Shown here in pieces: positions 32,152 to 33,987 of a stretch of DNA of 64,000 nt. Numbering within the stretch: the first letter of the stretch is position 1; each line of letters opens with the position of its first letter. Under the pieces are notes generated by a model, which saw only the letters and a list, made by a program, of their open reading frames with translations, ran no database searches and was not told where the DNA came from. The DNA comes from Escherichia coli. Its GTDB lineage: Bacteria; Pseudomonadota; Gammaproteobacteria; Enterobacterales; Enterobacteriaceae. The stretch is taken from assembly GCF_965641715.1 (NCBI RefSeq), contig NZ_OZ282453.1; one strand, written 5' to 3'. The translations under genes and the position numbers were made by a program.

Positions 32152-32163
32152 CAGCCCCTGTCG

Positions 32164-33987
32164 CTATTGAAGTAATTCATTACCAAGCCCAAGAAGGCGA
32201 TTAAACTCGGTATGCTGCCCATTCATGATCAACAGGGACTGATACGCTTTGTTTTGTTCCGCCGCCTGTTGACGGATCAACGCCACCCGTCGCTCCTCCA
32301 GCCCGGCAAGCACATCCTGAATGGATTGCGCTTTACCCTGCATTTGAGTGAGGCGAGACTGTTCAACTGCCAGTTGATTTGTTGCTTCTGCAAGCCCTTC
32401 TGTGACAGTTTTTACCGACGTCATGTGGTTAATCATAAAACCGTTATCGGTTGTCCAGCCCGGATTTGCCAGCACATACTGATAGCCAGCAATTTTTTCC
32501 TGTAAGGATTTAATCTTACTTTTCTGCTCGTCAATTAACCTGTTCTGCTCCTTCAGTGCCTGTCGCGTCTTTTCCTCATTATCTGACGCTTCAGGAAGCG
32601 ACATTGCCGACGTTTTCTGGCGAATTTCGTCGATTGTTGCGGCATACTGGCGTGCAGATTCTCTGGCCTGCTCCTGATTCTGATACATCGTGTACCAGGC
32701 CGCAGCCCCCAGCATGACGAGTCCCGGCACACCACCAACCAGCCCCAGCGCGCCACTTAATAAACGACTCCCCACTGACGTAACATTATTCAGCGTTGTC
32801 TGTGCCGCTGTTCTGGCCGCAATATTACGGGTAAGTGACGCCTGGGCAGCTGTCAGCTTCGCTTCTGCTGCGGCCTGCCTTTCGGTACCGCGAGCAGCAA
32901 CAACCGCCTGTTGCGCACGATAAACCGCCGCACGCGCCCTGGCGGTTGCTATCTGTGTCCCCCGAAGTTGCACTTCAGCAAGAGCCACTTCGTTTCTGGC
33001 TGCAGTAATTAATCCGGCAGTTGCAGATCCAGCAGACGACGCCATATTGCCAAAATATCGGGCTACCCCGACGGCAACCAGAGCACCGGCAGCGGTTGCC
33101 ACGGTGTCAATATTGCCTGCAATACCATTCAGCACACCGGAGAGCGTCTTCGTCACTCCGCTTGCCTCGTTCGCACCACCGACCCAGGCCATAAAGGCGT
33201 TTTCAACTTTGGTTGCAGAGGATGAAACCGTATCAGGCATTGCCGCATATTCATCACGTAATGCCCCAAGCTGACTAATCAGTGCAGGAACAACCTTATC
33301 GGCGGTCAACTTTCCGTTATCCGCCATGGCCTTCAGATCCTTACGGGCAACCCCCATTCCCGCAGCCAGCGCACGAATAACACGATCGCCGTTCTCATTC
33401 ACCGAGTTAAACTCTTCACCGCGCAGCACTCCCTGCGCCAGTGCCTGACTGAACTGCGTGATCACCGAACTGGCTTCTGCTGTACTGGCACCGGATAATT
33501 TCAGGCCCGTGGAGATCGCCTCGGTGACTTTCAGTACCTCCTCAGAACTGTAACCATACTCCCGCATGGAAGCTGCAGAACGGGCAAAAAGGCTGGCGTT
33601 ATCAGAAAACGCCGTCCCCGTTCTCTGGCTGATCGCCATTAATTCACGCTGTGATGCCTGAAAATCATCACTGGACTGTGAGGCCTGCTTCAGACGGGCA
33701 TTTACTGAATTCCACTCATCGGCGAGAGAAATAAGATGACCGGTAGCAAAAGCCCCGGCAAATGCCCCCGCCATATTCAGTGCCGAAGATTTAGCTGTAT
33801 TTATCTGATCCGTCACTTCTGCCAGTGCACGCCGCATTTCACGGGATGCAGCAGCGGACTGCCGGCCCCCGTTCTGCATGGTACGGTAGTAATCCTGCCC
33901 CATACGCGAAGCCCGGGAGATCTCTGACTGGAATGACCGGGAATTTGCCGAGATTTTAATAATCAGTTCACGTAGTGTCGCCACACT
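32164..33987 (-). CDS. Tail tape measure protein, N-terminal segment (ends at in-frame TAG 32164-32166)
   Basis: ORF 32164-34110; coiled-coil-rich Ala/Gln protein; likely start MSVATLRELIIK; only TAG plus four codons separate it from the next ORF in the same frame. Confidence 0.75.
   Translation of the reverse strand, partial: SVATLRELIIKISANSRSFQSEISRASRMGQDYYRTMQNGGRQSAAASREMRRALAEVTDQINTAKSSALNMAGAFAGAFATGHLISLADEWNSVNARLKQASQSSDDFQASQRELMAISQRTGTAFSDNASLFARSAASMREYGYSSEEVLKVTEAISTGLKLSGASTAEASSVITQFSQALAQGVLRGEEFNSVNENGDRVIRALAAGMGVARKDLKAMADNGKLTADKVVPALISQLGALRDEYAAMPDTVSSSATKVENAFMAWVGGANEASGVTKTLSGVLNGIAGNIDTVATAAGALVAVGVARYFGNMASSAGSATAGLITAARNEVALAEVQLRGTQIATARARAAVYRAQQAVVAARGTERQAAAEAKLTAAQASLTRNIAARTAAQTTLNNVTSVGSRLLSGALGLVGGVPGLVMLGAAAWYTMYQNQEQARESARQYAATIDEIRQKTSAMSLPEASDNEEKTRQALKEQNRLIDEQKSKIKSLQEKIAGYQYVLANPGWTTDNGFMINHMTSVKTVTEGLAEATNQLAVEQSRLTQMQGKAQSIQDVLAGLEERRVALIRQQAAEQNKAYQSLLIMNGQHTEFNRLLGLGNELLQ

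Follow-up and report, generated by a model that had tools for sequence, protein, structure and literature searches.

The 64,000-nucleotide stretch of Escherichia coli contig NZ_OZ282453.1 (assembly GCF_965641715.1) analyzed here, which we call the window, contains a lambdoid prophage next to potB whose tail tape-measure gene is interrupted by a premature amber codon at position 607. We regard this as very probably a recent, spontaneous mutation in a ruler gene of the lambda/HK97 type, inherited within one small E. coli lineage or strain and leaving its prophage tail-defective. The gene is a recognizable tape-measure gene, its TAG sets it apart from every intact relative that was aligned, and the same TAG recurs in separate data sets.

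On the minus strand the site reads ...CTT CAA TAG CGA CAG GGG CTG GTG AAT GTA.... The TAG occupies 32166..32164; after it come four sense codons and, in the same frame, a GTG at 32151..32149. The change lies at base 32166, which reads T on the coding strand and A on the plus strand; in relatives the coding strand has C at this position (G on the plus strand), making the codon CAG, glutamine. The ORFs on either side of the TAG, both on the minus strand, occupy 32164..34110 (upstream) and 30757..32151 (downstream) in one frame, and the minus-strand sequence thus bears out the original prediction that they are separated only by a single in-frame TAG and four sense codons. Two of its measurements need adjustment: a start had been placed at 33987, whereas the start annotated in relatives is the GTG at 33984, which sits five nt after a GGAG (an in-frame ATG also occurs at 33990), and the combined length of about 1,077 aa becomes 1,075 aa for an intact gene of 3,228 nt. 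The complete gene, 1,075 codons plus stop and now a pseudogene, therefore spans 30757..33984 (minus strand), its lambda gpH / HK97 type being assigned by Pfam and by gapless alignment to the gene encoding WP_042634620.1. Its expected translation product is an N-terminal fragment of 606 aa (32167..33984, minus strand) containing TMP_3 (aa 83-272) and positions 1-210 of PF06120. The downstream remnant (30757..32151, minus strand) is a 464-aa ORF that begins at GTG 32151, three nt downstream of a Shine-Dalgarno-like AGGGG, retains the rest of PF06120 and a lambda-type C-terminal domain, and is reported as a separate gene by gene callers.

The identity of the gene is clear from both homology and domain content. 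Of 5,426 complete E. coli genomes, 1,888 gave a match to 'phage tail tape measure protein' with a 1-kb query centred on the stop, the best at 99.9% identity, equivalent to one mismatch. In CV839-06 and 14EC029 the locus is a single 3,228-nt CDS (WP_042634620.1) preceded by a tail assembly chaperone and protein T and followed by M, L, K (C40 peptidase), I and J. A single gene that relatives annotate as 'phage tail tape measure protein' covers both halves of the interrupted gene in a gapless alignment, so the juxtaposition of the two ORFs is not a matter of chance. The upstream part matches PF20155 (TMP_3, E = 2.9e-58, aa 83-272) and profile positions 1-210 of PF06120 (Phage_HK97_TLTM, E = 8.6e-74), and the downstream part resumes PF06120 at profile positions 214-292 (E = 8.3e-13) before matching PF09718 (Tape_meas_lam_C, E = 1.2e-13). 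The last of these confirms the lambda gpH-like features noticed earlier, and the three domains together make up the Pfam signature of a lambda gpH / HK97-type tape measure. Continuity of PF06120 across the stop excludes a natural two-gene boundary. What the window lacks is the uninterrupted ruler frame found in all relatives examined, its own frame ending at codon 607 of 1,075; it consequently holds a pseudogene of the tape-measure family and no functional member.

The position of the gene is likewise typical of the family, after the G/GT chaperone pair and before M-L-K-I-J, an order taken over from EC416 and borne out by Pfam. Projecting the EC416 annotation onto the window gives chromosomal genes from 1 to about 21316 (pdeG ... 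icd ... mnmA, phoPQ, pepT, potA, potB); truncated side-tail-fibre remnants at 21548-24146, where the lambdoid prophage begins, its late genes being read from the minus strand; lom, J, I, K, L and M at 24211-30779; the tape-measure gene at 30757-33984; T, G, V and U at 34032-35830; HK97-type head genes at 35827-40265; the C-terminal part of terL at 40459-41202; an inserted island of about 15 kb at 41203-56245; the N-terminal part of terL at 56239-57273; and terS, HNH, endolysin and holin genes at 57273-59531. A gene-by-gene comparison with EC416 showed only two defects private to the window, the tape-measure amber and a 1-nt deletion in the SSB gene of the island. The immediate neighbours of the ruler are intact by Pfam and EC416 transfer: the tail assembly chaperone G (PF06222, 34334..34705, minus strand) and the T ORF (PF06223, 34032..34310, minus strand), the latter in the -1 frame relative to G, are the canonical G/GT chaperone arrangement, with a -1 programmed-frameshift heptamer A_AAA_AAG (34343..34337, minus strand) directly before the G stop. 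The minor tail protein gene M (PF05939, 30423..30779, minus strand) is also intact, and its first 23 nt coincide with the 3' end of the tape-measure gene; the early stop might also lower M translation if these overlapping genes are coupled.

Comparison with intact alleles bears out the proposal that the TAG is a nonsense mutation. The window gene differs from that of CV839-06 by 15 substitutions and zero indels; one of these accounts for TAG in place of CAG (Gln) at codon 607, and the remaining 14 comprise 12 synonymous and two missense changes. This relative, like 14EC029 (their shared WP_042634620.1 is a 'MULTISPECIES' Escherichia entry), has the same neighbouring genes G, T, M, L, K, I and J as the window. 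The EC416 gene is closer, with only 4 differing sites, and again has CAG. With glutamine restored, the window encodes a 1,075-aa protein (designated P0031) that occurs as an exact copy on 492 public contigs under the name phage tail tape measure protein, so that the window protein and this intact prophage protein are identical apart from codon 607, which is CAG in all 10 fetched loci encoding P0031. Two loci (L018 [GCA_019374325.1] and L021 [GCA_012229475.1]) are identical to the window in DNA over the whole 3,228 nt except at base 32166, a one-nucleotide difference from an intact, otherwise identical allele of the kind that defines a recent nonsense pseudogene. Across the relatives aligned at codon 607 (L001, L003, L017-L026 and L002, whose product accession is the same as that of L001) the codon is CAG in 13 of 13, which settles what is normally present in related tape-measure genes. 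Because no other change lies downstream of the stop, the C-to-T transition is recent; a long-standing pseudogene under relaxed selection was considered and ruled out, since the downstream part is DNA-identical to intact alleles. The 81-nt context of the stop matched 975 complete E. coli genomes, none with 100% identity, and the exact TAG-bearing pattern had no match in GTDB species representatives or IMG/VR.

A sequencing or assembly error, with a real codon of CAG and an intact gene, would also leave a single base differing from otherwise identical intact genes and a TAG allele present in no complete RefSeq E. coli genome. The public collection, however, contains both the exact 606-aa and the exact 464-aa products, and these fragments are adjacent on Logan contigs of runs ERR14867472 and ERR15204927 and on CBDGWI010000023.1 (GCA_965259455.1). 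Over the 3.3-6.7 kb fetched from these three assemblies, the DNA matches the window at 100% identity and has the TAG, and a 5.16-Mb contig on record in the collection carries the same fragments. Such reproducibility in separate sequence data is what a genuine recent nonsense pseudogene predicts, and a substitution of this type is not typical of systematic errors. The suggestion of a sequencing error is thereby largely refuted by two read-based Logan assemblies and one NCBI assembly, and we consider it exceedingly unlikely that the gene is in reality intact. The recommended inspection of raw reads at 32164-32166 is in effect answered by these assemblies, which derive from separate runs and reproduce the TAG; doubt of this kind can be settled from public read-based assemblies. 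The Logan runs and NCBI assemblies may nonetheless stem from one strain or a tight clone. Both amber-carrying Logan contigs stop exactly at 30283, inside gene L (29725-30423), which suggests that the same genome has a second, almost identical L-to-J tail module; such a module would represent another lambdoid prophage that might supply tails.

Amber mutants of lambda gene H are classical conditional-lethal tail mutants, and the phenotype predicted here matches theirs. We conclude that a spontaneous transition at 32166, C to T on the coding strand and thus G to A on the plus strand, converted Gln codon 607 from CAG to amber, and expect translation now to end after 606 residues. The 606-aa product would be without the last 469 residues, including the PF09718 domain that sits in the tail-tip complex, and would presumably be unable to join that complex or to nucleate or measure a tail. 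In lambda, gpI holds the C-terminal end of the tape measure in the tail tip, where gpH residues 818-842, its C-terminal helix, make up a trimeric coiled coil (PMC10721106); infectivity of TP901-1 depends on both the first 154 and the last 60 residues of its tape measure (PMC5099701). With its C-terminal part missing, the ruler would not be anchored in the tail tip and no normal tails are to be expected. By this reasoning the prophage should make no normal tails, and would produce heads only, unless the defect is complemented or suppressed.

Tail supply may also concern the island that interrupts terL (41203-56245, between terL fragments 40459-41202 and 56239-57273). In relatives with an intact 585-aa TerL, the island's point of insertion corresponds to about codon 338-343, and the island is bordered by an imperfect att core, TTTGTGArAAwATT. 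Among 5,426 complete E. coli genomes, 35 have the int|terL junction, strain 042 and EC416 among them. The island encodes an integrase, two HTH regulators, BRO-N, Icd-like, DUF4222, a DUF927 primase, SSB and ProQ/FinO proteins, together with a separate set of genes for an HK97-type capsid, protease, portal, connector, HNH, TerS and TerL. Its SSB gene (48830-49254, minus strand) carries a window-specific 1-nt deletion at about 49019, AAGCCAG to AAGCAG, that shifts the frame relative to EC416. By gene content the island resembles a capsid-forming PICI satellite, a class described as depending only on the tails of its helper (bioRxiv 10.1101/2022.09.08.507074). The prophage tail module is the obvious nearby source of tails for an island resident in terL, and a tail-less helper would strand the island too, unless another prophage supplies tails.

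The consequences of the amber would be milder if it were functionally leaky or suppressed, a host suppressor tRNA or near-cognate tRNA-Gln yielding enough full-length protein for some normal tails, of which each needs only a ruler trimer. UAG followed by C is a relatively weak stop context in E. coli, and since the +4 base here is C some leakiness at the TAG is possible; read-through by tRNA-Gln would moreover recreate exactly the widespread protein P0031. Basal read-through of UAG in E. coli is, however, very low. A dedicated read-through site, another of the possibilities raised in the original prediction, is unsupported: the TAG is conserved neither in the 975 genomes nor in GTDB representatives or IMG/VR, no relative shares the stop as programmed read-through would lead one to expect, and its use has therefore not been shaped by evolution. 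No stimulatory structure was seen in the surrounding RNA, which folds no better than shuffled sequences (MFE -26.7 kcal/mol; mean of the shuffles -28.6; z = 0.54). The window contains no suppressor tRNA; its only tRNA genes, Arg(TCT) and Met(CAT), are adjacent and prophage-borne, lie upstream of the lysis genes (60859-61012, minus strand), and neither is a suppressor. Nothing points to an evolved device for read-through or suppression at the TAG, and although lambda gpH has been modelled as a trimer (PMC10721106), so that the demand for full-length protein could be modest, a functionally leaky amber seems to us very unlikely. Still less credible is a natural or functional two-gene arrangement, in which translation stops at the TAG and re-initiates at GTG 32151 so that two chains, or the C-terminal one as a shorter ruler, build tails. 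The GTG lies 13 nt past the stop with AGGGG three nt upstream of it, and gene callers do propose the 464-aa ORF, but the Shine-Dalgarno spacing is short, the stop cuts a single Pfam domain (PF06120), and the tape-measure N-terminus is essential in TP901-1 (PMC5099701). The natural gene boundary in intact relatives that would have argued against a mutation is absent, every related prophage and induced phage having one continuous 1,075-aa gene, and we find this arrangement scarcely conceivable. Taking the bypass routes together, whether low-rate tRNA-Gln read-through to a wild-type ruler or re-initiation at GTG 32151 to a 464-aa half-ruler with short tails, a biological effect is most unlikely, although if there were one a single SNP would set the tail supply for both the prophage and its satellite. 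None of the three loopholes, a host suppressor elsewhere, near-cognate tRNA-Gln read-through or re-initiation at GTG 32151, has positive support.

A different question is whether a tail-disabling amber was favoured, the host lineage gaining by inactivation of tails, for example through neutralizing the prophage or limiting the spread of its resident satellite. The capsid-forming satellite-like island inside prophage terL, of a kind that depends only on helper tails (bioRxiv 10.1101/2022.09.08.507074), speaks for this idea. Against it, the amber allele was found only in the three fetched assemblies and the one recorded 5.16-Mb contig, compared with 492 contigs bearing the intact protein, there is no parallel occurrence among the 975 context-matching E. 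coli genomes, the GTDB representatives or IMG/VR, and what remains is one private SNP without a signature of selection. We consider selected inactivation quite improbable and infer that the change represents neutral decay. Recent, unselected loss of the ruler in one lineage is ordinary prophage decay, the product being a pseudogene of a well-known family that is neither novel nor surprising, and a C-to-T change here is the commonest kind of amber-generating change. In the literature, a search for published nonsense mutations of the ruler gene in lambdoid prophages yielded nothing directly relevant.

Close known counterparts include the lambda gene H amber mutants, in which the ruler gene of a tail module of the lambda type is likewise interrupted by an amber codon. 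Those alleles are of laboratory origin, whereas the window amber is a natural prophage mutation whose effect is predicted from sequence. Lambda gpH shares with the window gene the PF09718 C-terminal domain and the same G/GT pair with a -1 slippery site, but the window protein is of the longer HK97/HK544 type (1,075 aa). Continuous matches over residues 1-1075 were found to the tape measures of induced or cultured phages, namely those of vB_EcoS-689R5 (98.7% aa identity), of phi467, Evi and PhiR49_2 (about 97%, lowest 96.9%) and of HK544 (78%), and in all five the gene is uninterrupted, unlike that of the window.

Both ORFs are best annotated together as a single tape-measure pseudogene, and any judgement of the prophage's inducibility or capacity for gene transfer should count it as tail-defective; beyond annotation the mutation has little importance. 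The prophage is compromised beyond the tape measure as well, its terL being split by the 15-kb island and its side-tail-fibre region being truncated. Over the flank at 1-12000 (pdeG, bluF, bluR, icd, mnmA ...) the best identity among 5,426 complete RefSeq E. coli genomes is 99.2%, the closest being O145:H28, so the host lineage is without an exact match in that set. Within the island interval, window positions 52632-53690 do not align to EC416, whose corresponding stretch contains an IS1414. On the side of the prophage nearest potB, the truncated side-tail-fibre region (21548-24146) matches EC416 fibre and fibre-assembly remnants annotated as partial, and some relatives have longer fibre genes, encoding up to 1,091 aa.
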